Shown here: piece after piece, positions 5,471 through 38,801 of the stretch
How positions within the stretch are numbered: position 1 is the stretch's first letter
Layout of the letters: every line of letters starts with the position of its first letter
IMG/VR virus record: IMGVR_UViG_3300025602_000002
Span: 166,718-205,518 of that record
Reading direction: 5' to 3' (one strand)
DNA from: a virus
Taxonomy: Duplodnaviria; Heunggongvirae; Uroviricota; Caudoviricetes
DNA length: 38,801 bases
The notes under the pieces: model-generated
Databases searched by the model: none
What the model saw: the letters and a program-made list of their open reading frames with translations, nothing else
Told to the model about the DNA's origin: nothing
Translations under genes and position numbers: made by a program

Positions 5471-5492
5471 ATGTGCTCTCCATTGTTAGGTG

Positions 5493-5564
5493 CAGGGACG
5501 GCAGGACTCGAACCCGCATTGCCGGTTTTGGAGACCGGAGCTCTACCAATTGAACTACGCCCCT
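5493..5564 (-). tRNA. trnW: tRNA-Trp (anticodon CCA)
   Basis: AGGGGCG-TA-GTTC-AATTGGTA-GAGC-T-CCGGT-CTCCAAA-ACCGG-CAAT-GCGGG-TTCGAGT-CCTGC-CGTCCCT-G; full cloverleaf, anticodon at 5531-5529, discriminator G, 3' CCA not encoded. Confidence 0.97.
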
Positions 5565-15968: not shown

Positions 15969-15997
15969 TTGACTAATTTAAATAAATAACTTATAAT
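15969..15997 (+). promoter_or_regulatory. Sigma70 promoter, predicted leaderless transcript
   Basis: TTGACT, 17 nt, TATAAT, 5 nt, ATG 16003. Confidence 0.75.
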
Positions 15998-16002
15998 AAA
16001 GT

Positions 16003-16254
16003 ATGTACATATTAATAGAACACTCTGGAAGTGACAAACATATTGAAATGGCAGAGTTTATTAAACAAGCTGCGGAAGACTTAGGATTTACCTACGAAGA
16101 AGCTGCAACTTTAGCGGATGAACCTTTGACTATATACGACGAAGATTTAACTAAGATAGCGGAACTAAAATCAATTCCAGATAGTTTTACGTTACATTAC
16201 TATTTATCCACCATGGAGGAAAAAGATAATGACCCAAATAATTCTATATGATAG
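16003..16254 (+). CDS. Small acidic KxA-motif protein
   Basis: Ends TGA-TAG, so one extra Trp under code 4; KQAA and KIAE motifs. Confidence 0.7.
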
Positions 16255-16946: not shown

Positions 16947-17777
16947 ATGAAATACCCATTTATAAAATATGTAGAAACGCTAGTTATGCGTAAATTACCC
17001 CCAGAGGATGTAAAGGCGGGCTTAGATATCTATAATCTTGAAATGCCTTTGTCAGATATCATGGTTATTAGAGAAGGACTAGAGAAGGCTTTTCCTGAAT
17101 ATTTTAAATCTCCTGAGATTGTGCCTCCTTCTGAAGTATTAGAACAAATAAACATAGAAACAATGTTTGCATATTTATATAAAGTATATACTCCTAAAAG
17201 CGTTAAGGGAGTTAAAGGTTCTTTTGAAGTAGTAAATGATATGCTTATGTATAGATTAATTACATCACTAGCGCTTGCGAAGATAACAGAAGAAGATATT
17301 GAGCTTATAGTTAATGGGAAATTTAATATCGACTATGAGCATGAAGATATAGAATCTTTCTTACACTACTTCTTTGATGTACAAGGTTGAACAATTGCTG
17401 ATAAAAAAGCATTAGTGCGAAAAACCAAAGAACATTTTTTACAACACGCATATAGAACTGCTCTAGAACATGATAAAAATTACTTAATTTGAAAACTTGG
17501 AGCATCTCCTGATAAATCTTTTGACTCCATGTTAAAGGATATGATGAATGATGCGTATTATAATTTTACCGAGAGATCAACAATTGACCCAGAACTTGCA
17601 CAAAAATGAGGAGCGTTAGCTGTTAAGCTGGCAGACAAATTAGAAAAATTAGATAAAGATAAAAAGAAAAAAGAAGACTTCTTTGCCGAAGTAACGTTTG
17701 AAGTAAAACAGCACAGAGCTGGACATGTAAAAGATTCTGACGAACCCAAACATATCCTGGATTTGATGAATGAGTAA
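16947..17777 (+). CDS. Hypothetical protein (276 aa, 3 TGA=Trp); possibly packaging-related
   Basis: Open to TAA 17775 once TGA is read through; overlaps the next ATG (ATGAGTAA). Confidence 0.75.
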
Positions 17778-18561
17778 TCAATACATTAAAAAACAAGCAG
17801 GCATCTTAGATGTGCCACAAGATACTTTAGCTAGCGATATATGGACTACTGAGGGAAAACTATATCCCCACATTAGGGATCAAATTTTAAATAGGTTATA
17901 TGCTTTTGTGCCTAAGAAAGTGGTACGAAGTGTGGTTATTTTAGGATCCATTACAGGATACAAATATACTGAAACGTCGGACATAGATATAAACGTTACG
18001 ATTGAGCCTTATGGTGACTATTTTCATCAAGCTAAGAAAGAAGTTAATGGCTATCTTGCACAGGGTACCCGACATCCTGTAAATTATTTTGTTATGCCCC
18101 ATACTTCAAAATTATCTAATTGAGAAAATTCTACGTTTGGAGTATTTGATGTAATTTCAAATGTTTGAGCAAACAACCCACCCGCTAGAGCTACAGTTAG
18201 AGACCCGCATAAGCAATTTAATCAAGAATTTATTATAGCAAAAATGGTTGCTGGACATTATAAAAGACTTGTTTTAGCTTTCCATAAAGACAAAAAAGAT
18301 TTAGAGACTCTTATAGCATTACCAGATTCTTGACATAAGTGATGGTGGATTAGAAATAAAAAAAAGGAAATAAATGAAGATAGACAAGATCTCATTAATT
18401 TTTCTCAAAATCTAGATAAATCTAGAAAATTAGAGTATTCTTTAGGGTGAGGAACCCCGAGGAATAATTATAGAAACGTAGTATATAAATTTATCGAACA
18501 CGGACCTCATGGCGAGTTATTCGAAAAATTTAAAGAAATCAAGCTAAACAATGGCAAATAA
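17770..18561 (+). CDS. Pol-beta-superfamily nucleotidyltransferase (263 aa, 5 TGA=Trp)
   Basis: LGSITGYKYTETSDIDINV (GS...DxD) and GVFDVISNV(W); N-terminal KQA motif. Confidence 0.8.
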
Positions 18562-18778
18562 GATACAGAAGAAAAGTGGACCTAAAGATTTTGGGTTAAA
18601 GGTATACGTACACAACCAAGATCAAAGAGGAATTAGTGATGCACTAAGACGCTTAAGAAGCAGATTAGATACAGAAAATATCATGGAAGAAGTGAGATGA
18701 AGACAGCATTATGTTAAGCCTAGCCAAAGAACCAAACATAAAAAGAAAAAATCTAATCCAAGATGTCTCAAAAGATAG
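18551..18778 (+). CDS. rpsU: Ribosomal protein bS21 homologue (75 aa, 1 TGA=Trp)
   Basis: LKVYVHNQDQRGISDALRRLRSRLDTENIMEEVR(W)RQHYVKPSQRTKHKKKK matches the bS21 pattern VxV...ALRR...E.R.R.HY.KPS. Confidence 0.8.
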
Positions 18779-20301
18779 CAATATCACGTAGCGAATTTGC
18801 AGAATCATTTTTCTGGCTAAATGGCGCCCCCTTCTCTTTAGATGATTACCCCCATATGCGACGTGTGTGGGATACTTCGCCTAAAAAGAAAGTTATGCAA
18901 TTTAGCAGACAGACGGCTAAATCCACTACAATGGCGGGAATGGTAACAGCTAATTCTGGTATGATTCCTTTCTTTAAAACTTTATACGTAGCTCCTACGA
19001 TTACTCAAGCTAAGATATTCAGTCATGATAGGGTGAAACCTTTTTTAGAAGGTAGCCCTTTTATGAAAGATCACTATATGAATACTTCTCTAGTAGATAA
19101 TGTTCACCATAAAGAATTAGCTAATGGATCTTTAATGCATATAAGATATGCGCTGCTTTCTGCTGATAAATTACGTGGATTTTCTGCGGATATGAATATT
19201 TTCGATGAGTGTCAGGACATGCTTAGTGAAATTATTCCTGTGGTACAGGAAACTATGACACACTCTGATTATAAATGGATAGTATATTCTGGTACCCCAA
19301 AACGTTCTAGAGGAACTTTAGCTGATTTATGGCATAAATCTACTATGTGCGAATATATAGTTAAGTGCCAAAGTTGTAATCATTGAAATATTTTAGATGA
19401 AGAAAACATTGGGGATTTCGGAGTTATATGTAAGAAGTGTGGTAGACCTTTAGATATTAGTGTAGGAGGAGAATGAGTTTCTACATATTCTTTAAAAAAT
19501 CCTACAGCTATGGAAGGGTATAGAGTTTGCGCTTTACACTTTGCAAAAGCACCCTGGGTTAATTGGCAGGAAGATATATTAGATAAACAAAGGCATTGGT
19601 CTAAAGCTTTTTTTCACAATGAAGTATTAGCGTTAGAATATGATGCTGGAGTATCACCTGTTACAGAATTTGAAATAGATAGAGCCAGTACCGGCCCGTT
19701 AATGGAAGAGGATCCTAACGAGGAACAGCGTAATTATCCTAGTGTATTAGCTATCGATTATGGCCCAGTTAATTCAGAAAAATCTTATACCGTAGCAGTA
19801 GTAATGCAACTTCGCTCTAATAAATTACGAGTAGTTTATGCTAAAAAGTTTATTGGAAAAGAAGCCGATTATAGTTTTATCGTTCCAGAAATTCCTAAAA
19901 TAATGGCTAAGTGAAATTGCGTTAGTGTAGCTTCAGATTATGGAATGGGCGAAGCGCCAAATTCAGAACTCAGAGCTAGAATAGGTTATGAAAAAGTAGT
20001 AGCATTTCAACATTCCGGTACCCAGAAAAATAAAATTCAATGGAATGACAAGATGCCCGCCTACACTTTAAATAGAACTAAAGTAATGACTGAATTCTTT
20101 GAAAACATTAAAAATTTACGAATAGAATTTCCACATACAGTATCAATGGATTCTTTTAAAGAAGACATTATGAATATACAAATTGACTATGACGAAGAGC
20201 GAGGATTTATGAAATATATTAATATAGGTCCAGATGATTTTGCCCATGCTTGTATTTTTGGAACTATAGCTTGCGAACTAATGTTTGGGGCAGTAAAATA
20301 A
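18763..20301 (+). CDS. terL: Terminase large subunit, GpA-like (512 aa, 3 TGA=Trp)
   Basis: SRQTAKST Walker A, FDECQD Walker B, SGTP, CQSCNH(W)...CKKC Zn motif, LAIDYG and DDFAHA nuclease motifs; three track ORFs in one frame. Confidence 0.9.
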
Positions 20302-20353: not shown

Positions 20354-21316
20354 ATGTTCACAGCATCCGACTTAGAAATTTTCGGTAAGTCTATTTCCGA
20401 AAAGTATATCAAAAACTCTATCCCTCTTACAGAAGGTTTAGCTAAAACAGCTGAAGCCCAGGGATTTACTACATACCAAATTGACCGAGTTGCAGAATTT
20501 GCTAATACGGCCACGTATCTTAACATGATGAAAACAGCTTCGGATAAATATATACGTTTTGAAGTTGCGGATTCAAAGGAAGCTAAAAAGAATATGAAAT
20601 CTATCAAAGTAGCTGTGGATTTAAGCGATTATGACGATGAGCCTTCTATTTTTTCTATGCAAAAAGTAGCAAGCGCTGAGAAACGTGAGGCAACGGAATC
20701 AGAATTACGGAAAATGGCCCAACGTCATTTAGGTAGTATACAAAGAGAAAGTAATATAATTGCAGAGCATGTAACGAGTTGGGATACTACATATGGACAG
20801 TTAAAGTCTCTAATAAAACAAGCAGTATTAGGCGGATGCTCTTATGGAAACGTTTCTGAAATTATAAAAGTCGCTGCACCACAAACCCATGAACATTTTA
20901 TTTCCTCAATAAGAGAGGAACTACAACCAAATATGCCTTTTGTTAAATTAGATACAGAAGGTGACAATTCCTTAACCCCTAACCCTAACTCAGATATTTA
21001 TAAAATCGCTGAAAGATTGGAAACATATACTGATGAAATCTGCCAAGCAGATAAAAATTTAGAACAGGAAACAGAGGATTATACTAAATTTACTAAAGAA
21101 GCCTCTCTTCCTAATATTAGTGGACTATTACAAGAAAAATCAGCGGCCTTAAAAGTAATTAAAGGTATTGGAAAAACAATTATAAATCATCCCAAAACTA
21201 CTGCAGCATTAGCTGTGGGGGCAATGGTACATAAGTCTGGCAAAAATAAAGGTAAGTTTGAACAAGGTTTGATATTACAAAAGAAATTAGTTCAGCATAA
21301 AATGGGGAGAAGATAA
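20354..21316 (+). CDS. Head-module protein with multiple KxA motifs
   Basis: 320-aa ORF, first gene of the head cluster; KTA, KVA, KEA and KSA motifs. Confidence 0.75.
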   Translation: MFTASDLEIFGKSISEKYIKNSIPLTEGLAKTAEAQGFTTYQIDRVAEFANTATYLNMMKTASDKYIRFEVADSKEAKKNMKSIKVAVDLSDYDDEPSIFSMQKVASAEKREATESELRKMAQRHLGSIQRESNIIAEHVTSWDTTYGQLKSLIKQAVLGGCSYGNVSEIIKVAAPQTHEHFISSIREELQPNMPFVKLDTEGDNSLTPNPNSDIYKIAERLETYTDEICQADKNLEQETEDYTKFTKEASLPNISGLLQEKSAALKVIKGIGKTIINHPKTTAALAVGAMVHKSGKNKGKFEQGLILQKKLVQHKMGRR

Positions 21317-21879
21317 TGCCTAAGATAAAAGGTTCACAAGTATTTAGTGGTTTGATAAGAGGCGCAATCGGGGAAAAGGATCCGGCAAAAATAATACAGT
21401 ATTTTAAAGCTGGTGCTGGAATGATGATTGCTACTTTAGCACTTGACGCTGTTGTAGATACAGTTACGGAAGTATTTAAATCTAAAAATAAAAAGTTTGT
21501 GGCTAAAAAAGCATTTAAGAAAATGATGGCAGTGCATCCTAAGTTACATAAGGTAGACCCTAATATACTTTCATTATACTGGGAATCATTATACCATTTT
21601 GCACCGCACATGGCTAGAGATCCGTTAGCTTCTGGAGCCTATATTAGGCAGTCTATTGAAAGGGGTCATTATGATTCCTTTGGAGGACCCCCTCCTGATA
21701 CGTTTTCTACATTAGTAGGTGTTGGTAGAGCTCCTATGAAACCCGGAAAGGGTCCTGGATTATCAGATATGGTATCAAAAGAGTTAGTGCAAGGAGCATT
21801 TGACGGCTTAGCAGAATTTGGGAAAGCACAAACATCTCCTACAAAATATAATTCACCTTTCGATAGCGACATTACATAA
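21316..21879 (+). CDS. Head-module hypothetical protein
   Basis: 187 aa, TAATG-coupled; PHMARDPLASGAYIRQ segment. Confidence 0.75.
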   Translation: MPKIKGSQVFSGLIRGAIGEKDPAKIIQYFKAGAGMMIATLALDAVVDTVTEVFKSKNKKFVAKKAFKKMMAVHPKLHKVDPNILSLYWESLYHFAPHMARDPLASGAYIRQSIERGHYDSFGGPPPDTFSTLVGVGRAPMKPGKGPGLSDMVSKELVQGAFDGLAEFGKAQTSPTKYNSPFDSDIT

Positions 21880-21886
21880 AAATTAA

Positions 21887-23608
21887 ATGATAGAAAAACG
21901 CGCAGAATACTTTTACGGAGACAATAACTCTGAGGTGTTTACCCTTATCGGTAAGGGAACCATGGAGAAAACTGCGTCGTATTCAGAAGAGTTAGTAGAT
22001 TATATTAATTCTTTAAAAAAGCGTGTTGACAAAGTATATGCTTTAGTAAATGCTTTATCTGCTGGAGAATTTTATAGCTCTAATAGAAATGGTGATCATT
22101 TTCCAGAAAAGGCCTTAAAACAATATCATAAAACATTTGAAGCTTTAGGTCATGTGTACAGACACCATGTAAATAAGGATCCAAGAAAATCGTTAGGTAA
22201 GGTTTTATTTTCACATTATAATCCTACAATGCATCGAGTAGAATTAATATTAGAATTAGATTCTAAAAAAGGTGCAGACGTTATTACAAAAATGCAAAAA
22301 GGAGAATTACCATTTTGTTCTATGGGAACTAAAGTTCCTTTTGACATATGCTCCATTTGCGGAAACAAAGCTCAAACGAGAGCTCAATATTGTGACCACT
22401 TAAAGTATCGTATGAATAATATTTTATCCGACGGTAGAAAAGTTTACGCAATAAATACAATGCCGAAATTTTTTGATATCAGTGTTGTAACTATCCCTGC
22501 CGACAGGACTGCTAGTTTTATTAGGCTTCTTGAAGCAAAATCATCTAGTAGACCTCGTGTTATAAAAATTGCAGAGGAATTACCAAAAGAAACAAAACAG
22601 CTTTTTAAAGCTGCCGGGTTTGAACCAAGAGCAGAAATTAGAAAAAAAGTAGACGTTAAAATAGAGATTGCGGACCAAGATCCAAAAAATATCCTATTAC
22701 ATACTCAGAAAAGACTTTCAGATGAAACAATCGAAAAGCTTTCTAAGTATAATATCGACGAGATACTTTCTACAATGATGGCTTTACGAATTGCACCAGT
22801 TAGAGAAGATTTTCAAAAATTGGCTGCGTACGTTTTTGGACAAAAAGAAGCGGCAGATAAATGGGCTGAAAATGGAGTTTGTTTTATTGTAGATAAGGAC
22901 ACAGTCCCTACAGAATTACCCAATGTAACTTTTGATAATTTTAATAGCAAGATCGCAGGGGTGCTTTTGAAGTCAGTCCCAGATATGTCTCTTACTAAAC
23001 AATGAGTATTAGCAAGAGGAATACATAAAGTAGGATATGAGTCTCAAGCAACAACCTATCCAAGTAATGTTTCTAGAGAACGTAGCGGAATAAAACGTTT
23101 CTTATTTACGCAGAAAGAGGAACCACCTGTTTCAGCACATAGAAATCCAGTAGTTCCATTAGGACTTCTAGGAAGCTTATATTACGGGTATGCGAAGGTA
23201 TTTAATAATCCATCGATTAATAAATTTAGATCGTTTGTAGTTAAATATCCTTGGTTACTTCCAGTATTAGTGGGAGCGGGAACGGCCGGTTCTTTAGCCA
23301 GCCAAAGTGTAGCATTTAATAAAGAAGCCTCTTTAGGAGCTGTGGACAAATTCCTAATGTCTTCTTTAATAACAGTACCAACCGCCTACTATTACGCAGG
23401 TAAACAGGAGAATAAAGCTAGAAAAGGTGTACCTTTAAAACCAACAGAGAACTTTGCCAGAAAACATCCATTACTCGCAGGACTAGTGGGGGCCACTGTA
23501 GCAACAGCTATTAAGAGACCTAAGTTTTTTAAAACAGCAGAGTTATTATCAGAAATAAGTCCGGAAGATTTGGATTTATTGTATAAAGATATCATAGGAG
23601 GGCAATAA
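21887..23608 (+). CDS. Prohead maturation protease with long C-terminal extension (573 aa, 1 TGA=Trp)
   Basis: NRNGDHF, HH, CSMG (putative catalytic Ser), CSICG..YCDHL, FFDISVV; in frame with track ORF 23270 through TGA 23003. Confidence 0.75.
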
Positions 23609-23609
23609 A

Positions 23610-24197
23610 ATGTCACTTAATATAGACAATATTTTAGCAAAACTAAAAGCTGAACACGAAAAAACAGCTGAAGAATCTTTTAATGACGCAATGCTTGAAG
23701 GTTCTACGGAAGTTAAAGAAGAAGTTAAAGAAGCAGAAAAGACTGAAGAAGTAGCTGAAGAAGTGAAAGAAGAAGTTAAAGAAGCTGAAAAGACTGAAGA
23801 AGTAGCTGAAGTAGTTAAAGAAGAAGTTAAAGAAGCAGAAAAGACTGAAGAAGTAGCTGAAGAAGTGAAAGAAGAAGTTAAAGAAGCTGAAAAGACTGAA
23901 GAAGTAGCTGAAGAAGTAGCTGAAGAAGACTTACAGAAAGAAGCTGAAAAATATGAAGATGCGGGTAGAATTATGGCTCAAGGTTTCTGGAAGGAATTGC
24001 AGAAACAGGCGTCTGAAGAAGTAGCTGAAGAAATAGCTGAAGTAGTTAAAGAAGAAGTGAAAGAAGAAGTTAAAGAAGCTGAAAAGACTGAAGAAGTAGC
24101 TGAAGAAATGAAAGAAGAAGTTAAAGAAGCTGAAAAAACAACTGCTGCGGATAGAATTATCGGAGCATTAACCTCACAGTATTTAGGAGATAACTAA
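23610..24197 (+). CDS. Scaffold-like acidic repeat protein
   Basis: Glu-rich EVKEEVKEAEKTEEVAE repeats; AGGAGG RBS; between protease and capsid. Confidence 0.7.
   Translation: MSLNIDNILAKLKAEHEKTAEESFNDAMLEGSTEVKEEVKEAEKTEEVAEEVKEEVKEAEKTEEVAEVVKEEVKEAEKTEEVAEEVKEEVKEAEKTEEVAEEVAEEDLQKEAEKYEDAGRIMAQGFWKELQKQASEEVAEEIAEVVKEEVKEEVKEAEKTEEVAEEMKEEVKEAEKTTAADRIIGALTSQYLGDN
23710..24140 (+). repeat. Intragenic tandem repeats of about 51-54 nt
   Basis: GAAGTTAAAGAAGAAGTTAAAGAAGCTGAAAAGACTGAAGAAGTAGCTGAA-like units in two blocks (approx. 23710-23925 and 24015-24140). Confidence 0.9.
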
Positions 24198-24199
24198 AG

Positions 24200-24505
24200 A
24201 TGGGAACACTATTAGACACATATAAAGCTATTCAGGAAACTGAAGCTGAAAAAGTGGCCGAAGAAGTTACTGAAGAAGTAGTTGACGAGGGTCAAGAAAC
24301 TTTACGTAAGTACGCTGAGGGCGCTGAAGGCTTATTAGCTGCAGAATATGGTGAAGATTACGACGAAAATGACGTAATAAAATTAGCTGGAATGATGATT
24401 GATTACGATGTGGAACAAGAAACAATGCTTGAAAAAGTAGCTGAATTGGAAGACATGGGTACAATTATAGGACAAGCTATTAAAGCTGAGTTAGCTAAAG
24501 ACTAA
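24200..24505 (+). CDS. Acidic head-assembly protein
   Basis: 101 aa; EKVA, KYA and KLA motifs. Confidence 0.75.
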   Translation: MGTLLDTYKAIQETEAEKVAEEVTEEVVDEGQETLRKYAEGAEGLLAAEYGEDYDENDVIKLAGMMIDYDVEQETMLEKVAELEDMGTIIGQAIKAELAKD

Positions 24506-24513
24506 CAAAAAAA

Positions 24514-24834
24514 ATGGATCCCAAGTTAATTAGCGAAACTATGGCTCTTGTTGAATCTCTTAGAGATGATAATGAGAAATTAGCATCTGATCTGGCGCAT
24601 GTGCAAAACGCGTATGCAATAGTATTTCAGATGTTTAAAGCCGGACATGTAGCTGCAGAAAATTTGGAGTCCACAATCAAGAAATTCGTCCAAAAGGACG
24701 ACTCGGAACTTGAAGTTATTGAAAAAGCTGCTAGCTTCGGAGGCGCTGTCGCGTCTCTAGGGGAAGTTAGTGACCGACTTCAGGATGACGGGACCATGGA
24801 TCCTTTGACAAGAATGCTTGTCGAAGATCTTTAA
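24514..24834 (+). CDS. Acidic coiled-coil head-assembly protein
   Basis: 106 aa; EKLA and EKAA motifs. Confidence 0.75.
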   Translation: MDPKLISETMALVESLRDDNEKLASDLAHVQNAYAIVFQMFKAGHVAAENLESTIKKFVQKDDSELEVIEKAASFGGAVASLGEVSDRLQDDGTMDPLTRMLVEDL

Positions 24835-24857
24835 AGATAATCGGAGGATATAATAGA

Positions 24858-25310
24858 ATGTTAGAAATTCTTTCTACCTTAAATAACCTTACTAGAATCG
24901 ACTTGACGTTAGACGCGGCAGGCTGGGTTTTAGCATCGGGCGTAATAGGCTCATGGGTTAGTCCTACCGGAACTGATCAATGTATAAAAGTTGCGGCCGC
25001 TGGAAACTTCGGATTTCCAATCTGGTCTGAATCTAACCGTTCAAGCTCTTTAGCAGGGTTCTCCCCTGACATAGCAGCTACCGGAAAAATTACTGTTTTA
25101 TATGGTAAAATCCGTGCAAGAACTGACCAATATGATGGTACGCCAGCTATTGGGTCTAAACTATACTTATCTGTTACAGGAACACTGTCTACAACAGCTG
25201 GGAGCTCGGCTCACCAGGTAGCGGTTTGTACTAAAGCGCAGTATAGTCATGATGTTAAATTCCAAGGCGCCATAACTGCAACAAACGTAATTGAATACGT
25301 AACCATATAA
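24858..25310 (+). CDS. Probable capsid decoration/cement protein
   Basis: 150 aa, small beta-rich Gly/Ala/Thr protein immediately upstream of the capsid gene; GGAGG RBS; called mainly on position. Confidence 0.55.
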   Translation: MLEILSTLNNLTRIDLTLDAAGWVLASGVIGSWVSPTGTDQCIKVAAAGNFGFPIWSESNRSSSLAGFSPDIAATGKITVLYGKIRARTDQYDGTPAIGSKLYLSVTGTLSTTAGSSAHQVAVCTKAQYSHDVKFQGAITATNVIEYVTI

Positions 25311-25325
25311 AGGAGGATTAAGAAA

Positions 25326-26249
25326 ATGGAATATTCAGCTAGTACGCTAAATGAGTTATTTGTAGAAAAGCTTAATTCCCCTGCGGGACTTGAGAAAGTC
25401 GCTATGGAAGGATCAGCTTTCGTTAGACAAAAACTACGTGAAGTTTCTTTTGCAAGAAAAATAATAAATCCACAATATGTAACTAAAGCTGACTTGACAA
25501 GATCTGTCAATCACGACGGCCTAGTTAAAATCGTGGACATCGAGCCTGACTCAGAAGCCATGGCACTGAACATGCGCGGACAGCCAAACCTTAGATACGT
25601 AATGGGCGATCGATTCGAGATACCCCTGTATCAGGTTAGTTCTGAAGACTTTCAGAAGACTGAAGAAGAGCTGTTGGCCTATGAAATGCCACTGACTGAC
25701 ATAATTGAGAAGAACTCAGTACTCGATTTACAACGCATTGAAGATGAAAAATTCTTAGAAGGTGTAGACGCGCTAATGCCCGTTGCAAACGCTAAGACCG
25801 GTTCTTATAGAGCATCCGGCAGTGAAACAGGTGTGATTGAAAAATCAAGCCTAAAAGAACTGTTTGACGTTTTAGACGGAGCGGAATTACGTTGCGATAC
25901 CCTATTAATGGATTCTACAATGTATAACAGATTATTCTTGTATGATGCATCAACTATTGGTGACTCAGCAGGAAGCGAAATCTACATTAATGGTTTCACT
26001 TACAATACGCTCTTCGGACGTAAAGTAGTTGTTTCCAATAAAGTGTTCAAACAGGACGGGTCAACTGCACTGTTACAGAACAAGATCTACGCTTTTGCAC
26101 CACAAGAATTCTTAGGACAATTCTTAGTATTAAACGATACTAAATTCTGGATCGAAAAGAAAAAGAATATTATCACATGGGCCGTGTACGAACACATTGG
26201 CATCGGATTTGGTAACTCCAAAGCGCTTGCTAAACTTACACTGTCGTAG
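25326..26249 (+). CDS. Major capsid protein (probably HK97 fold)
   Basis: 307 aa, AAGGAGG RBS, last gene of protease-scaffold cluster, followed by a strong terminator; EKVA motif near N-terminus. Confidence 0.75.
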   Translation: MEYSASTLNELFVEKLNSPAGLEKVAMEGSAFVRQKLREVSFARKIINPQYVTKADLTRSVNHDGLVKIVDIEPDSEAMALNMRGQPNLRYVMGDRFEIPLYQVSSEDFQKTEEELLAYEMPLTDIIEKNSVLDLQRIEDEKFLEGVDALMPVANAKTGSYRASGSETGVIEKSSLKELFDVLDGAELRCDTLLMDSTMYNRLFLYDASTIGDSAGSEIYINGFTYNTLFGRKVVVSNKVFKQDGSTALLQNKIYAFAPQEFLGQFLVLNDTKFWIEKKKNIITWAVYEHIGIGFGNSKALAKLTLS

Positions 26250-26303: not shown

Positions 26304-26332
26304 TTGACATTTTCCTCCACAAAATCTATATT
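26304..26332 (+). promoter_or_regulatory. Sigma70-like promoter, predicted leaderless transcript
   Basis: TTGACA, 17 nt, TATATT, 5 nt, ATG 26338. Confidence 0.75.
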
Positions 26333-26337
26333 TAGAT

Positions 26338-26685
26338 ATGATACATCCCACAACTAATTATAAACGTGAAATAAAGGCTTTAGTAGGAGATCCAGATGTA
26401 TTTCCAGTAACTCTTCCAGGAGCTTGAGGTACTGAGGCTGTAGACTTTACATCCGACTTAGCGGCATTATTGTTTCGAGATTTACAATTAGGGATGACAG
26501 ACACAACTTTACAAGACGACAGAGCCTACGCAGTGAGTAGTGTCCTAGGGCATTCCTTAGTTACAGACGTTGTATCAACTGAAGCTACGAGTTTAATAAC
26601 AAATTCTCAAATACAGATGATTGATACCAGTATGGATACAGTAGTAATAGTTACTACGAAGGGAAACACCTTAACTATAATATAG
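26338..26685 (+). CDS. Hypothetical virion protein (115 aa, 1 TGA=Trp)
   Basis: ATG 26338 in frame with track ORF 26470 through one TGA. Confidence 0.7.
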
Positions 26686-28718: not shown

Positions 28719-31700
28719 ATGAATATATATGGTCACACTTCCTTTGTCGGGCAAACTGGCTATGCCGCTCATGCTCGTGGATTTTTTAGAGCTTTAAATA
28801 ACTACTTACCAGTTAAATTAAGAAATTTTTCTGTAGGGCCTTCCTGAGATGGAGTATCTGATCGTCCTCATGAAAAGGAAACATATCTAACAGACATTGA
28901 TAAAGAAATGTTCATTAGGCAGACTTGTGACGAAGGTATGGATAGTGGGGTGTACAAAGGTATAGATTTTGAGATGTATAACGGAGTCGGAACTCTTCCT
29001 CCAGAAAATCCTGTTAACATAATTTTATCAGAAACAAACCACCATTACTGATTCGAAAATAGTTATCCCGGCTACAACATAGGCTATAATGTCTGAGAAA
29101 GCACTTTATATCCAAATGAGTTTTTTGAAGCACTATTACGAAATGAAATGTTATGAGTACCCACTAAATGGCAACGCGACTGTAGTATCGCCCAAGGATA
29201 CCCTGCTGATAGAGTATTTGTAGTTCCGGAGGCTGTGGACACCTCAATCTTTAACGTTAGTTCTGGAAAAAGACCAGACGAGTTTAAAGACGACCGATAT
29301 AAGTTTGTATTATTTGGCAGATGGGATCATAGAAAATCTACAACAGAAATTTTAAGAGCTTTTAGTGAAGAATTTGGTGCAAATGAACCTATCGATCTGG
29401 TGTGTTCTATCGAGAATCCCCACTCGGTGGATGGAATGAATTCTACTAAAGAACGTTTAGCTTTTCATAAAATAGAACATCCAAATATTAAAATTATACC
29501 TTTTTTACCTAGAAAAGATTACATTAATTATCTTAAATATGGAGATTGTTTTGTATCTTGCGCTAGATCGGAAGGGTGGAACTTACCCTTAATAGAAGCT
29601 ATTGCTTCTGGAATTCCCACCATATGCTCAAGCCATCCGGCACAATTAGATTTTGCGGGAGGAATCTCCCAACAAGTAAGGACTATAGATCAAAGACCTA
29701 TGAAGCCTTTTATGTTTGCTACAGAAGGAGTAGGATTATGAGATGAGCCTGACTTCGACCACTTAAAGGAAATAATGAGAAGCACTTATGAAAATAGAAA
29801 TATAAATAAGGGCCAGGCACTTCTTAAAGCTCCTAGAGTCAATAAATTTAGTTGACAGAATGCGGCATTAACTGCTGTTGATATATTAAATAATAATGTA
29901 AATGAAAATTATTATAAAGATTTTGGAAATTATATTACAGCTATAAAAAGTAATAATACTCCATTAATAAAAATAAATGGACCTATAAAAAAGCAATATA
30001 CTGTTGAATTTCTTGAAGATAATAAAGAAGTATATAAAGCAGAATTATCAAATGAAGATTCTTGGGCGTCTAGTTTTCCTATTTCAAAAGATACAAAAAT
30101 TAGGATAAATGGCGAAGATCAATTTTTGCTTGATAAGGTATCAAATAAAATACAAAGTACTGCTGCAAAATTAGGAGCGTATGTAGTAGGCGGTGATCTC
30201 AAATATATGCCTTATGTAGAGGCGTGTGTAAAAAGTTTATTAGAATTTTCAAAACTCCCAATAATTGTTTATGGATTTAATTGTGAAGTACCCTTTTCAT
30301 ATTCGAGAGTAATAAATAAAAAAATAGAATATTCTGGAGGCAAAGTAAACCAGGTAGGTCATGTAGATAGCCAAAACTATTTTGCTAGAATAGCGGCTGC
30401 ATTAGAAACTACAAAAAATGATGAATTTGATTATTATATTTTTTTAGATGGAGATATGGTAGTGTCGGAAAATATAGACCATCTTAATACTTATGTAGAT
30501 AAACTAAAACATTATCCACTATGTATGAGATATAGATACCCCTCTTTATTACATTTTAGAGAGGATGGGGATGGGCGAAGAGAAAAGAAGCATGGAGAAG
30601 AGCTTTGCGAACTATACGGGTGAGATACCGGTAATTTACCATATAGCGGTCACACAGTGGCCACAGGTATATTTATGTATGATAAAAGATCTCAACGTTT
30701 TTTTGAAGAAGTTCTCCGAGAAGAGGCTTATATAAGGAACATTAGTAATACAGATTCAGATGGTAAAATTTTTGTAGATGACACGGCATGCTCTGAAGAA
30801 CGAATTATTAACATGTTATTTTGAAAATATAAATATGACGAGTTTCTTCCTATAACTTGAATTTCTCCACATGACAATGTTATGGGCTTTAGCCAGGGGC
30901 ATATAGCCTCCTTAAATTATTCTTCTATGTTTTTTATGGAGAATTGGCCCAAAGAAATGGATGAGATTTACCCAAAAAGCGAAGCTAATATACTAGCGTA
31001 TCATCCAGAAATCGATAACAAAAATCCTAATACTGCTTCAAAAGTATTGAGGTTTCTTAAAAAAATTAAGAAAGAGATTGTAGTTATAAGCTCTTATACT
31101 GATACCGCTAGTAAAGAAAAATTATTAAAAGAACGCATAGCGCAAATTAAGGGGTTTGGATACGATATATTATTATCAACCCACTATGATGTTCCTCAGG
31201 AGATAAAAGATGAAGTAGATCACTATGTGTATGATCCAAATAATGAAATATTTGAAACTCCTGAATTTTTTTGAGGAGATCTTTCTGGAGTTTATTTTGA
31301 AACTTTTTATAGTAAAAATAAAAATCATTCTTATGCAGCGTTTACATTATTTAAAAATGCCTTTAATTACTGTAAAAACTTAGAGGTTGATACTATACAT
31401 TTTTTAAATTATGATGTTTTGTTAAAATACAATCCTTTCATTAAATTTAGAACTCTATTAAAGACCACTAATAGTTCAGGATGTTTTATTACAAGTCAAT
31501 CAAACGAAGACAATATAACTTTTGAAAATGTTAGAGTTCTTATGTTTTCAGTTACCACTAAATTTAAAGGATTTGAGGGAATAGATTCTTTACAAGAATA
31601 CTTAGAGCTTTCAGAAAGACAATTGGAGAAGTGACTTTATGAGCGTTTTAGAATGCAAAATATCTGAGATGATATTATAAAATTAGATGAAAAAACAGAA

Positions 31701-34631
31701 GCTTCTCAATATACAATAAAGGATTCCATAAGCTTGACAACTTATAAAGTTAATTTATTTGAAAAAAATAAAAATTTATTGGCCCTAATTTTTAGAGAAA
31801 GATTAGATGATAATGAAGTATTATTTAAATACACTTGCTATGAGGATACTAGAGATGTATTGGAGAGAGAGGCGCATATTAAATTTGAAACAGATAGTAA
31901 AGTGGTGGTGATTAATTTAGGAAATTTAAAAGATGTTAAGAATATTAGTCTTTTAGATTCTCATAATGGTGTGGAAATAACTAAGGAACTAGACGAAAAA
32001 ACTTTATCTGAAATAGAAAATAATATAATTAGGTTAGAAAAAGAAGTAGAAATGGTGGATCTAACAAGAAATGATATATTACAAGCTATAGAAGATAATA
32101 AACCTTTAAAAGAAGTAGTGGCTATTTTAGCCTATACTAACACCAAAGAAAAAATAGATGTTTTAAAAAAATGTATAAAGCGAATTAAGGAATTCGGATA
32201 TGATATTTTGTTAGTAACACACTACCCAGTTAGTTTAGAAATACAAAAATCTGTAGAACATTATGTATATGATAGTAACAATGAAATTATAGAAATCCCG
32301 GTTACTTTTTGATTTGATAACGAAGATTATTTTGTTAAATCTGTAAATCATGAAACTCCAAATCATTCTTATGCAGTATTTTCATTATTTAAAAATGCAG
32401 AAGTATACTGTAAATCACGAGATATAGACATAATTCATTTTTTAAACTACGATATGATTCCGCAAAAGGATTTATTTAAAATTCATAAAGAAGATTTAGG
32501 TAAAGGCGCTCATGGCTCATTTTACTACTATGATACAGATGAGGATTCTTTTGCTATGACATTTTTTTCAATTTCTAAAAATTTTACGGCGTTCAATAAT
32601 ATAAATAATTCCCAGCAATATTTTAAGGCTTCTTCTTCAAGAGATGGGGATTCTAGACTGTATCTAGAGCCTTGGATTTATGATCTTATTATTAAAACAG
32701 AGGGAGAGTCTAATCTAAAAATAAGAAAATATATAGATGTAGAAAAGGATTATGGAGTTAAGAATTTAATTACTGATGGAGCTCTTAATATATATGGATT
32801 TGTATATAAGAAAGAATTTAGGTTAGTATTAGGTAAACCAAATATTACTGATGATTCTAAATATTTGTTAAAATATAATGGTAAGGAAATTAATTTAGAT
32901 TTTTCAGGTTCTAAATTTTTTCATCATAATTTGGGATTAAGTTCTAAACTAAATAAATATCAAATATATAAAGATGGTAAATTATTCAAGAATGAGCTAG
33001 TTACAAAAGATTACAAAAAAAGAATAGAAAAATATAACACATTTGTCGTGAAGGCTGATACTAAACTTCCTAATAAGTTGATGATAGTAGCTCACCCGGA
33101 CGACGAACTTATTTTTGGAGGATACGACTTATTAAAAGACCCTGAAGATTGAAAAGTTATATCAGTAACGGGAAAAAGTAATCCAATTAGAGCGTATGAG
33201 TTTAGCAAAGCTATGGAAACTTTAGGAGTAGGAGAATATGCTTTATGAGATTTTCCTGACTCTTTATATGATAAATTTGATGAAAAATATTTAAGAAAAT
33301 TTATATTAGGTGAAACTTCTAGAAGATATTATAAAAAAATAGTAACTCATAATTCTAACGGAGAGTACGGGCATGTACAGCATAAATCTCTTCATGATGC
33401 TATGATAGAAATTAGTCCTAGAAATTTATATACTTTCTCGATAGGAGATAAAACTAAAATATATCCTTTAGAAGAAAAAAGAAAATTACTTGAAGTTTAT
33501 GAGAGTGAGGAAACAGAATTGCCTGGTTATTTAGATTATCTTTATTACGGGGAATCAACTTCTATATTAAATGGAAATATATCAGTTGACCATAATTTTG
33601 TAGATGGACCATTTGTAGAATTGTGAGGATCAGAATCTGACCATACTTATGATATAAAATTTATTGATCAAGATTTAGAAGAGGTTGTATATGAGAAAAT
33701 TGGAGTATCTGCTAATAGCTGAATTAAAGCAAGTAGAGTATATTTTACCAATTATATGATTACGGTACATAAAGGTGAAGAATTAGTGAACCAATACGCT
33801 TTTAATTGTGATAATAAACGAGTATTAATTGCGTTAGATAGCAGCTCTCTAGGAGATACTTTGGCTTGAATACCCTATGTTCAAAAGTTTAAAGAAAAAC
33901 ATAATTGCGAAGTAATAGTGTCTACATTCCATAATCATTTGCTTGATTATCCAGAATTAAAGTTTATTAGTCCGGGAACTACTGTTGACAATTTATACGC
34001 AAGCTATGTAGTAGGTATTAGAGAAGATGATGATTTCCTTCATAAAAGAAATCCATTTTCAATTCCTTTACAAGAGGTTGCTTGTGATATTTTAGGTCTC
34101 GAGTATGAAGAACTATTACCGCAAATGGCTAAGATTAAAGGACATACTGATATTGACGGTCCTTATGTATGTCTAGCGGCCCACTCCACAGCTCAGTGTA
34201 AATATTGAAATTATCCTGGAGGATGGCAAACTGTGGTAGACTATTTAAATTCAAAAGGTTATAAAGTAGTAGTTATAAGTAAAGAAGAAAGTGAATTAAA
34301 TGGCATAATCGACAAAACTAACTTGAATCTTACTGAAACAATGCGTATATTGAAACATGCTACATTCTTTATGGGATTGAGTTCAGGATTAGCTTGGCTA
34401 GCTTGAGCGTTAAAGGTGCCAGTATTAATGATTTCCGGCTTTACAGCGCCTTGGTATGAATTTAAATGTGTTAGAATGCATAAAGACACAGTATGTCATA
34501 ATTGTTTTAATGAGGAAAAATTTGATAGAGGCGATTGAAATTGATGTCCTAGAGGAAAGAATTTCGAGTGCTCTTCAAGTATTTTACCAGAGGAGGTAAT
34601 TAATACTATTTATGAAAATTGAAATATCTAA
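28719..34631 (+). CDS. Giant multidomain glycosylation protein (1970 aa, 23 TGA=Trp): GT4 + GT-A-like + duplicated domain + PIG-L-like deacetylase + TibC/GT9-like heptosyltransferase
   Basis: Eight track ORFs in one frame with no TAA/TAG between 28719 and 34629 (gaps checked codon by codon); NV(W)ES, GRWDHRKS, RSEGWNLPLIEA, FS(W); FLDGD; AHPDDE and THN..GEYGHVQH; SLGDTLA(W)IPY, GLSSGLAWLA(W), CHNC. Confidence 0.85.
31071..32453 (+). repeat. Duplicated 115-aa domain within the glycosylation protein
   Basis: 31071-31415 and 32109-32453 share GYDILL.THY, HYVYD.NNEI, F(W), NHSYA.F.LFKNA, IHFLNYD. Confidence 0.85.
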
Positions 34632-35006: not shown

Positions 35007-38000
35007 ATGTCAGGACAAATAAAAGCCAAACAAATATCGGATGTATATAGCCAATCACAGGCTAATGCAACATTTTCAGCAAAATCCCACAACGCATCCG
35101 CCGCACCACCAGCGTCCCCAATAACTGGACAGACTTGGTGAGATTCATCTAATGAAGTATTAAAAACATGAACAGGTAGTACATGAGTAGCCTCTGAAGG
35201 TACCTCAGGTACTTCTGGCTCAAGCGGAGCTAGCGGTGCTAGCGGTACTTCCGGATCAAGCGGAGCTAGCGGTGCTAGCGGTACTTCCGGAACTAGCGGT
35301 ACTTCTGGATCAAGCGGATCAGCAGGTTCAAGCGGATCTTCGGGGACTTCCGGAACTTCTGGAACTTCAGGATCAAGCGGAACTTCAGGATCAAGCGGTA
35401 CGAGTGGTACAAGTGGTACGAGTGGTACTTCAGGTTCAAGCGGTTCAGCAGGTTCAAGCGGTTCAAGCGGTACGAGTGGTACTTCTGGATCAAGCGGGAC
35501 TTCAGGAACTTCAGGATCAAGCGGATCATCAGGATCAAGCGGAACTTCGGGAACTTCTGGTTCAAGCGGGACTTCAGGAACTTCTGGTTCAAGCGGGTCA
35601 GCAGGATCAAGCGGTTCTTCCGGAACTTCCGGATCAAGCGGTACGAGTGGAACTTCAGGATCTTCTGGAGAGAAAGGAGTTACTGGAGATTCAGGATCAA
35701 GTGGATCAAGCGGAACCTCAGGCTCTTCTGGAGCTAAAGGAGACGCTGGAACGAGTGGTTCAAGCGGAACTTCTGGTTCAAGCGGAACTTCAGGATCAAG
35801 CGGTACTGGCGGTACTTCTGGGTCTTCTGGAGGAGTTGGAACGAGCGGTACTTCAGGATCAAGCGGAGCAGCAGGAACTTCAGGTTCAAGTGGAGATACG
35901 GGGGTGCCCGGAGCTTCAGGGTCAAGTGGTTCTTCCGGAACCTCAGGATCAAGCGGTACGAGTGGTACTTCGGGGTCAAGTGGAACTAGCGGTACTAGTG
36001 GTACTTCGGGTTCGAGTGGATCAAGCGGTTCAAGCGGTTCAAGCGGTACGAGTGGTACTTCAGGTTCAAGCGGTACGAGTGGTACTTCAGGTTCAAGCGG
36101 ATCAAGCGGTTCAAGTGGATCAAGCGGTACGAGTGGTACTTCCGGAACTAGCGGAACTTCGGGATCGAGTGGAGCAGCTGGAACTTCAGGAACAAGCGGT
36201 TCAAGCGGAATAGACGGAACTTCCGGGTCAAGTGGTACGAGCGGTATAGGCGGAACTTCCGGATCTTCAGGAGGTGCAGGTACAAGTGGTACTTCTGGAT
36301 TAAGCGGTACGAGTGGTACGAGCGGTTCTTCTGGGACTTCCGGATCAAGCGGGACTTCTGGATCAAGCGGTTCAAGCGGTTCAAGCGGCACAAGCGGTAC
36401 TTCCGGTTTAAGCGGAACGTCAGGTTCAAGCGGTACAAGTGGAACTTCAGGATCAAGCGGAACTTCAGGATTAAGCGGAACTTCAGGATCAAGCGGTACA
36501 AGTGGAACTTCAGGTTCAAGCGGATCAGCAGGATCAAGCGGTTCAAGCGGATCAAGCGGATCAAGCGGTACGAGTGGTACTTCGGGGTCAAGTGGAACTA
36601 GCGGTACGAGCGGTACTTCGGGCTCAAGCGGGGATAGTGGTACGAGTGGTACTTCAGGGTCAAGTGGGACTTCAGGAATTAGCGGTACTTCAGGGTCAAG
36701 TGGGACTTCAGGAATTAGCGGTACTTCAGGATCAAGCGGAACTAGCGGTACTAGCGGTACTTCTGGGTCAAGCGGGACTAGCGGTACTAGCGGTACTTCT
36801 GGGTCAAGCGGGACTGCGGGTACAAGCGGTACTTCTGGATCAAGTGGAACTAGCGGTACAAGTGGAACCTCAGGGTCAAGCGGTTCAAGCGGTTCAAGTG
36901 GAACTAGCGGTTCAAGCGGAACTTCAGGAACTTCTGGAACTTCAGGTTCAAGCGGAACTAGCGGTACGAGTGGTACCTCTGGATCAAGCGGTTCAAGCGG
37001 TTCAAGCGGTGTAAGCGGCACTTCCGGATCAAGCGGTACGAGTGGTACTTCAGGTTCAAGCGGTTCAGCAGGTTCAAGCGGTTCAAGTGGAACTTCAGGA
37101 ACTAGCGGAACTTCAGGATCAAGCGGAACCTCAGGAACTTCAGGATCAAGCGGTACGAGTGGAACTTCGGGATCTTCTGGAGAAAAAGGAGTTATTGGGG
37201 ATTCAGGATCTAGCGGGTCAAGTGGGACCTCGGGCTCTTCTGGAGCGAAAGGAGACGCTGGAACAAGCGGTTCAAGCGGAACTTCCGGAACTAGCGGAAC
37301 TTCAGGTTCAAGCGGTACTGGCGGTACCTCTGGGTCTTCTGGAGGAGTTGGAACTAGCGGAACTTCAGGATCAAGCGGAGCTGCAGGAACTTCCGGTTCA
37401 AGCGGTACTTCCGGTTCAAGCGGAACTTCCGGAACTAGCGGAACTTCGGGTTCAAGTGGAACTTCCGGAACTAGCGGAACCTCAGGATCAAGCGGTATAA
37501 GTGGAACTTCAGGATCAAGCGGTTCAAGCGGTTCAAGCGGATCAAGCGGAACCTCAGGATCAAGCGGTACAAGTGGTACGAGTGGTACTTCAGGTTCAAG
37601 CGGTACGAGTGGTACAAGTGGTACTAGCGGGTCGTCTGGAACTAGCGGGTCAAGTGGAACTTCCGGTTCAAGTGGTACGAGCGGAACCTCAGGATCTTCT
37701 GGAGAAAAAGGGGTTACGGGGGATTCAGGTACAAGCGGCTCAAGTGGAACTAGCGGTACAAGTGGAACTTCAGGATCAAGCGGAACTAGCGGTACGAGTG
37801 GTACTAGCGGGTCATCTGGAACAAGCGGATCAAGCGGAACTTCAGGAACTTCTGGAACTTCAGGATCAAGCGGAACTTCAGGAACTTCTGGAACTTCCGG
37901 GTCAAGCGGAACTTCAGGAACTTCAGGAACTTCAGGTTCAAGTGGATCTGCAGGATCAAGTGGTTCTTCCGGAACTTCAGGATCAAGCGGTACAAGCGGT

Positions 38001-38801
38001 ACTAGTGGTACTTCGGGGTCAAGCGGTACAAGTGGTACGAGTGGTACTTCAGGTTCAAGCGGAACTAGTGGTACTTCTGGGTCAAGCGGTTCAGCAGGTT
38101 CAAGCGGTTCAAGCGGAACCTCTGGTTCAAGTGGTACTTCAGGCTCAAGTGGAACTTCAGGTACAAGCGGAACTTCAGGTTCAAGCGGAACTTCAGGTAC
38201 AAGCGGAACTTCTGGGTCAAGCGGTTCAGCAGGTTCAAGCGGTTCTTCCGGAACCTCAGGTTCAAGCGGTACGAGTGGTACTTCAGGATCAAGCGGTACA
38301 AGTGGAACTTCAGGATCAAGCGGAACTTCAGGATCAAGCGGAACTTCAGGAACTTCAGGATCAAGCGGAACTTCAGGAACTTCAGGTTCTAGCGGAACCT
38401 CCGGGTCAAGTGGAACTTCAGGAACTTCAGGTTCAAGTGGATCGGCAGGTTCAAGCGGTTCAAGCGGAACTTCGGGATCAAGCGGAACTTCAGGAACTTC
38501 AGGTTCAAGCGGTTCAAGCGGATCATCAGGATCAAGCGGAACTTCCGGGTCAAGCGGAACTTCAGGAACTTCAGGTTCAAGCGGATCAGCAGGATCAAGT
38601 GGCTCTTCCGGAACCTCCGGGTCAAGCGGTACGAGTGGAACTTCCGGGTCAAGCGGTACGAGCGGAACCTCCGGATCAAGTGGTTCAAGCGGTTCAAGCG
38701 GTTCAAGCGGTTCAAGCGGTTCAAGCGGAACGTCTGGATCATCTGGTAACACCGGAAATGCAGCCGGACATGTCCAGTACAACTTTGACAGCTCAACAAC
38801 T
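35007..38801 (+). CDS. Collagen-like tail/virion fibre, partial (at least 1265 aa, 3 TGA=Trp)
   Basis: ATG 35007; PASPITGQTW(W)DSSNEVLKT(W)TGST(W) fibre motif, then Gly-X-Y repeat; open at the window end. Confidence 0.88.
35199..38762 (+). repeat. Gly-X-Y repeat, 396 triplets by length, mainly G-S-S and G-T-S
   Basis: 9-nt periodicity (GGN-TCA-AGC, GGA-ACT-TCA); Gly every third codon, mirrored by Pro every third residue in the antisense shadow ORF. Confidence 0.95.

Follow-up and report, generated by a model that had tools for sequence, protein, structure and literature searches.

Gene Content of the Locus

The window, that is, the whole stretch of DNA analysed (38,801 nucleotides), corresponds in reverse-complement orientation to bases 818-39618 of a virus record of 141,836 bases with an estimated completeness of 67%. 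Three genes followed one another on its plus strand: a gene for a nucleotidyltransferase (NTase)-like protein, a gene for the ribosomal protein bS21, and terL, which encodes the large terminase subunit (Table 1). The stop codon of the NTase-like gene overlapped the ATG of bS21 by 11 nt, and the ATG of terL lay inside the tail of bS21, with an overlap of 16 nt. No Shine–Dalgarno (SD) motif was found before bS21 or terL, as would be expected where a start codon falls within the gene before it. The two overlaps and the lack of SD motifs at these starts fit translational coupling, and the arrangement of the reading frames suggests that the NTase-like gene, bS21, and terL probably form a tightly packed, coupled gene string.

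Table 1. Features of the bS21 locus and the tRNA genes related to its decoding (window positions unless stated otherwise).
Feature	Position	Strand	Basis or remarks
Candidate sigma-70-like promoter, TTGACT-17-TATAAT (11/12)	15969..15997	+	Pattern match only
NTase-like gene, 263 aa, 5 in-frame TGA	17770..18561	+	Weak PF18765/PF01909 matches
Phage bS21 gene	18551..18778	+	ATG 18551, 75 codons, TAG stop 18776-18778
In-frame TGA of bS21, codon 50, read as Trp	18698..18700	+	TGA = Trp shown on TerL
Large terminase subunit gene terL, 512 aa, 3 in-frame TGA	18763..20301	+	PF05876, PHROG_675, alignment
tRNA-Trp(CCA)	5492..5564	-	ARAGORN and Rfam
tRNA(UCA), TGA-reading, 97 nt	Genome C1, complement 135590-135686, outside the window		ARAGORN

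The terL product matched PF05876 with 52.2 bits and PHROG_675 ("terminase large subunit") with 235 bits, and its start agreed with the TerL N-termini of the relatives. Compared with cultured phages (Salmonella phage Arash, Vibrio phages, and SPO1-like phages), its identity was 28% at most. The NTase-like protein carried a Pol-beta-type signature (GS...DxD; GSxTGYKY..SDxDxN), a helical C-terminal domain, and an invariant C-terminal GWGxPR. Its structural model had a pLDDT of 80, and the top Foldseek rows were ANT-type aminoglycoside nucleotidyltransferases, MNT antitoxins, and CD-NTases, all with weak E-values.

Two further long genes were observed on the plus strand of the window. The ORF at 28719-34631 had 1,970 codons with 23 in-frame TGA, and several domains for sugar modification were recognised in it, namely GT1/GT4, a PIG-L deacetylase, and a GT9 heptosyltransferase, together with a weak match to an epimerase. 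In addition, a collagen-like gene occupied 35007-38801 and ran past the window end, with at least 1,265 codons of G-X-Y (GSS/GTS) repeats (PF01391, 516 bits) and a GC content of 0.53 compared with 0.35 elsewhere. The long ORFs on both strands at this gene were caused by the repeat.

Genetic Code of the Phage

The virus record contained 28 tRNA genes and a tmRNA, as determined by ARAGORN and Rfam. The tRNA(UCA) resembled the tRNA-Trp(CCA) of the phage in its anticodon arm, its acceptor stem, and its G discriminator. When TGA was taken as a sense codon, the ORF coverage rose from 0.826 to 0.893. The minus strand of the genome, which corresponds to the plus strand of the window, held 120 TGA against 127 TGG codons, while about 100 genes on the genome plus strand were free of TGA and 16 plus-strand ORFs ended in TGA in the standard-code tiling. 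The recoding of TGA to Trp was confined to one set of operons, and the remainder of the genome was compatible with the standard code.

The meaning of the codon was obtained from the TerL alignment. The TGA of the window at W238 aligned with a TGG-encoded Trp of the relative L004 (48% identical), two TGA codons of L004 stood opposite TGG-encoded Trp of the window, and two positions had TGA in both. This exchange between TGA and TGG indicates that TGA means Trp. Code 25 (TGA = Gly) was also considered, and it was rejected because TerL puts TGA opposite Trp and the tRNA(UCA) resembles tRNA-Trp; on the bS21 profiles, the Gly and the Trp readings scored alike.

An amber tRNA(CUA) was also present (genome C1 100867-100943, outside the window), yet TAG looked like a normal stop. 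Read-through of the bS21 stop by this tRNA was rejected, since the coverage was unchanged with TAG as a sense codon (0.893 both) and 46 tiled genes ended in TAG. Such a read-through would append only 13 residues, up to the TAA at 18818-18820. In the 142-kb record, which is 67% complete, neither a release factor (PF00472) or RF1 nor a tryptophanyl-tRNA synthetase (PF00579) was found.

Identification of the bS21 Protein

According to the sequence and its translation, the bS21 reading frame begins with ATG and comprises 49 sense codons, a TGA, 25 further sense codons, and a TAG. With TGA read as Trp, the product matched PF01165 (Ribosomal_S21) with 44.7 bits (E = 1.1e-11), well above the cut-off of 27. 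The full-length protein also matched TIGR00030, the NCBIfam equivalog of S21p, with 38.7 bits (cut-off 28.95), as well as the PHROG family "ribosomal protein S21". These scores lie far beyond chance, so the bS21 identity is real. The protein was strongly basic, with 22 K/R against 7 D/E in 75 aa. Moreover, its ALRRLRS and HYVKPS segments aligned with the motifs of bS21 chains from solved ribosomes; these alignments continued across the TGA, with a YEKPS-type motif four residues further on. On this profile and motif evidence, the product of 18551-18778 is a bona fide phage-encoded bS21.

The AlphaFold model of the protein had a pLDDT of 84 and contained helices at residues 25-42, 44-52, and 57-73. 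A Foldseek search of the PDB with this model returned nine rows, and all nine were mitoribosomal small-subunit chains with a length of 85-95 residues, although the matches were weak (best E 0.35).

The product obtained under the standard code was quite different. Translation without suppression would halt 63 nt short of the terL ATG, leaving a stump of 49 aa, which has neither the YxKPS motif nor the C-terminal helix, is devoid of the anchoring C-terminal part of bS21, and scored only 16.9 bits against PF01165. The HYVKPS motif itself occupies codons 53-58, 3' of the TGA. Public gene calls contained the 75-aa form on 20 contigs and the stump of 49 aa on 36. A contig of 211,738 bases also carried an identical call of 49 aa, and the size of the phage genome is about 210 kb.

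The early stop in the standard code and the predominance of the stump in public gene calls are what would be seen if bS21 were a decaying pseudogene and its TGA a plain nonsense mutation. However, the reading frame continues intact for 25 codons past the TGA, and these contain the most conserved motif of the family and raise the score against PF01165 from 16.9 to 44.7 bits. Furthermore, both flanking genes also require TGA to be read as Trp, and the end of the ORF falls exactly in the overlap with terL. A decaying gene is therefore extremely unlikely.

The result was in agreement with the preliminary description of this DNA, which had proposed a bS21 gene here: only the truncated form fell below the Pfam cut-off. 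The geometry that it gave was exact, with the TGA ahead of the HYxKPS motif and 16 nt shared with the start of terL. It had also held that functional bS21 would be made only with recoding active, and this agrees with the need for TGA decoding in the full-length product. As judged from the reading frame, full-length bS21 depends on decoding of the TGA by a suppressor, and translation through this codon is a mechanism well supported by the genomic evidence. The upstream gene (five TGA) and terL (three TGA) need TGA decoding equally.

Conservation of bS21 and Its Neighbours

An exhaustive phmmer search with bS21 gave only 24 representatives at E ≤ 0.001, the nearest being 41-48% identical, and on the contigs of the three closest relatives bS21 stood directly before a gpA-type large terminase. 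A tblastn search of bS21 against GenBank phages gave no match. Seven further loci (L006-L012) were obtained by scanning IMG/VR with the TerL alignment, while a single-sequence TerL query of IMG/VR gave no pattern matches. Among the loci from the alignment scan, bS21 was present upstream of terL in L006, L008, and L012 and missing in L007, L010, and L011; L009 had no upstream sequence.

Altogether, bS21 was located immediately 5' of terL in L003, L004, L005, L006, and L012, and one gene, a 2OG-Fe(II)-oxygenase/glycosyltransferase, lay in between in L008. The NTase-like gene was found upstream in five of these relatives (L003 455-1195, L005 2948-3997, L006 577-1398, L008 325-1161, and L012 1362-2792), and the L004 contig ended too near upstream to show it. 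LAGLIDADG inteins interrupted the terminases of L005 (4406-8231) and L006 (1597-4413).

The bS21 proteins of the window and its six relatives all matched PF01165 over the cut-off (7/7) and kept the ALRR and YxKPS motifs. An N-terminal PKDxGLxVYV motif was common to the window bS21 and its phage relatives. The clade with the NTase-bS21-TerL order included standard-code as well as TGA-recoded members. This conserved order is the more durable observation at the locus.

A position before terL with overlapping or abutting frames, kept at 36-48% protein identity across the relatives, might indicate a bS21 homologue repurposed for packaging, either as a nucleic-acid-binding partner of TerL at the place of the small terminase or as a partner of the NTase. 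Searches of 20 neighbouring ORFs with PHROGs and of 10 with Pfam recognised no small terminase, which would agree with such a role. Small terminases are often unrecognisable from sequence, and their absence from the scans is therefore weak evidence. In addition, the protein is small, and all seven members stand above curated bS21 cut-offs with both motifs retained. In phages, bS21 genes are also common next to those for TerL and capsid with no such role known (PMC9723584), and a packaging function is very improbable.

A broader possibility is that the NTase-like gene, bS21, and TerL form a conserved, translationally coupled module in a clade of large phages, in which bS21 would work with the ANT-like NTase on the ribosome or in packaging and the amount of bS21 would be tied to that of the terminase, with bS21 locked behind the code switch in this lineage. 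We consider this unlikely. If it were true, bS21 would do more than stand in for the bS21 of the host.

The In-Frame TGA of bS21

The TGA at codon 50 stood opposite K or R in the solved bS21 chains. The codons opposite it in the six relatives were AGG, CGT, GGG, GAT, GAA, and AAG, encoding R, R, G, D, E, and K, respectively, and across 22 members of the bS21 family this column held R, K, G, A, L, E, M, and others. None of the solved or aligned bS21 had Trp at this position. Moreover, TGA occurred in the bS21 of none of the six relatives (0/6), not even in the three with heavy TGA recoding of terL (L004, L006, and L008, with 4, 11, and 10 TGA, respectively). The terL genes of L012 and L007 had no TGA.

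In the recoded genes of this phage, TGA made up 49% of the Trp codons and occurred at 6.5 per 1,000 codons. From this frequency, the probability that a recoded gene of 75 codons contains at least one TGA was about 0.38. The absence of the codon from the relatives, the variability of the column, and this chance value together indicate an incidental, lineage-specific Trp codon. The simplest reading is that a variable, surface-type residue turned into Trp by way of TGA, which is an everyday Trp codon in this lineage. The Trp at codon 50 may affect the function of bS21.

Recoding and the Order of Expression

The density of TGA differed among the neighbouring groups of genes. The string of the NTase-like gene, bS21, and terL contained 9 TGA against 11 TGG in about 850 codons. 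The head block at 20354-26249 (+), with a prohead-protease-like gene at 21887 and the major head protein gene at 25326, had 1 TGA against 10 TGG in about 1,940 codons and the strongest SD motifs. The genes that flank the head block (packaging on one side, tail/glycosyltransferase on the other) were rich in TGA.

These densities bear on whether the TGA of bS21 might be a selected timing gate, such that the ribosome is remodelled only after the suppressor tRNA has appeared. Full-length bS21 does require TGA decoding, it belongs to the gated subset (9 TGA in about 850 codons compared with 1 in about 1,940 for the head genes), and recoding as a regulation of late genes is a published idea (10.1101/2021.08.26.457843). 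However, the codon was absent from all six relatives, the three heavy terL recoders among them; it also occupies a variable site, and the chance of at least one TGA in a gene of this length is about 0.38. Moreover, the five TGA codons upstream would already break the coupled chain, so the one in bS21 adds little. The timing gate is accordingly an improbable explanation. The preliminary description had suggested the codon as part of a staged takeover of the ribosome, and a designed step of this kind was not supported, for the same reasons (0/6 relatives, a variable position, and a chance of about 0.38).

The head block is nearly without TGA, so the capsid proteins could precede bS21. If they do, this is a poor fit with the published role of phage bS21 in boosting the synthesis of structural proteins. 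If recoding gates expression, bS21 would group with packaging rather than with the bulk production of capsid proteins.

Translation Signals and Promoters

SD-like tetramers were present upstream of 87 of the 174 ATG-started ORFs, compared with 11% at random positions, and GGAGG or AGGAG stood at the proper distance before the genes of the capsid region. Because translation in Bacteroidota is SD-poor, this frequency argues against a host from this group.

The candidate promoter upstream of the bS21-containing operon ended 5 nt before the ATG at 16003 and is a possible start of the operon that extends from 16003 to terL. A second near-consensus candidate of the sigma-70 type was observed within 26304-26338 (+), ending 5 nt before the ATG at 26338, which likewise opens an ORF. 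These two were the only leaderless-compatible promoter-to-ATG arrangements on the plus strand of the window, and genome-wide there were 7 compared with 0-4 in shuffled sequences. Around the gene, sigma-70 promoter-like sites showed no excess (21, with a shuffled expectation of 24.3), and the terminator scan was not above the shuffled expectation either. The leaderless promoters invoked in the same preliminary description thus came down to two plus-strand candidates in the window, against SD-like motifs at about 50% of the genes. Judged by its start regions, the phage is not generally leaderless.

Proposed Role of the Recoded bS21

We regard it as highly probable that the locus carries a phage bS21 within the NTase-bS21-terL string, with an ordinary recoded Trp codon, and that the full-length protein must await the suppressor. 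In the proposed mechanism, the TGA at codon 50 would be an innovation of this lineage at a site that varies and is usually charged, and full-length bS21 and the terminase would be made only while the tRNA(UCA) is active. From other phage bS21 genes, we infer that the full-length protein would enter the 30S subunits of the host late in infection, beside the anti-Shine–Dalgarno region, and that it might bias initiation there. The identity of the gene, its reading frame, the code, and the synteny follow from the profiles and alignments described above; the timing, the incorporation into ribosomes, and the effect on initiation are expectations drawn from this analogy.

One gene here unites two published phage strategies, the carriage of a ribosomal protein and the code switch of late genes. 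The locus is a clean test case, since supplying a single tRNA could switch on the production of bS21. The recoded codon as an accident of the lineage is also a caution against inferring design from single recoded codons.

Comparison with Known Systems

Phage-encoded bS21 has been described in freshwater Bacteroidetes phages by Chen et al. (PMC9723584), where the gene is found among those for TerL, portal, protease, and capsid. In that study, bS21 was co-expressed with late structural genes, and substitution into host ribosomes late in replication was proposed; of the 900 published bS21 phages surveyed, 78 had TerL no more than ten genes away from bS21 (PMC9723584). The bS21 of the present phage likewise sits among late-type genes, and the earlier remark that phage bS21 genes occur beside structural genes is borne out by these data. 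However, in the clades a-e of Chen et al., bS21 and the structural genes were encoded on opposite strands and no reassignment of a stop codon was detected (PMC9723584), whereas the present bS21 gene is encoded on the same strand, overlaps terL, comes after a conserved NTase-like gene, and contains a recoded TGA. In addition, the hosts in that study were Bacteroidetes, and SD-like motifs precede about 50% of the genes of the present phage.

The recoding of TGA to Trp (code 4) in late genes, with a suppressor tRNA(UCA), was reported by Borges et al. for clades from animal and human guts (10.1101/2021.08.26.457843). Like those phages, the present one has terminase TGA opposite Trp, its own tRNA(UCA), and recoding in a subset of genes. 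The text of Borges et al. has no mention of S21 or of any ribosomal protein (10.1101/2021.08.26.457843). No published description of a phage bS21 that itself needs the code change of its phage was found.

Compared with cellular bS21 (rpsU; for example, the chains 5myj_AU of Lactococcus lactis and 5nd8_u of Staphylococcus aureus), the phage protein is of the same size class, shows the same strong basic charge, and has the ALRRxxR and YxKPS motifs, with sequence matches up to E = 2e-4 to chains of solved ribosomes. It differs from the cellular proteins in the N-terminal PKDxGLxVYV extension and in the Trp, encoded by TGA, where they have K/R. The occurrence of phage bS21 in a late region is known, and the present gene belongs to this kind; it is set apart by a distinct phage clade, a tighter link to terL, and an incidental recoded codon.
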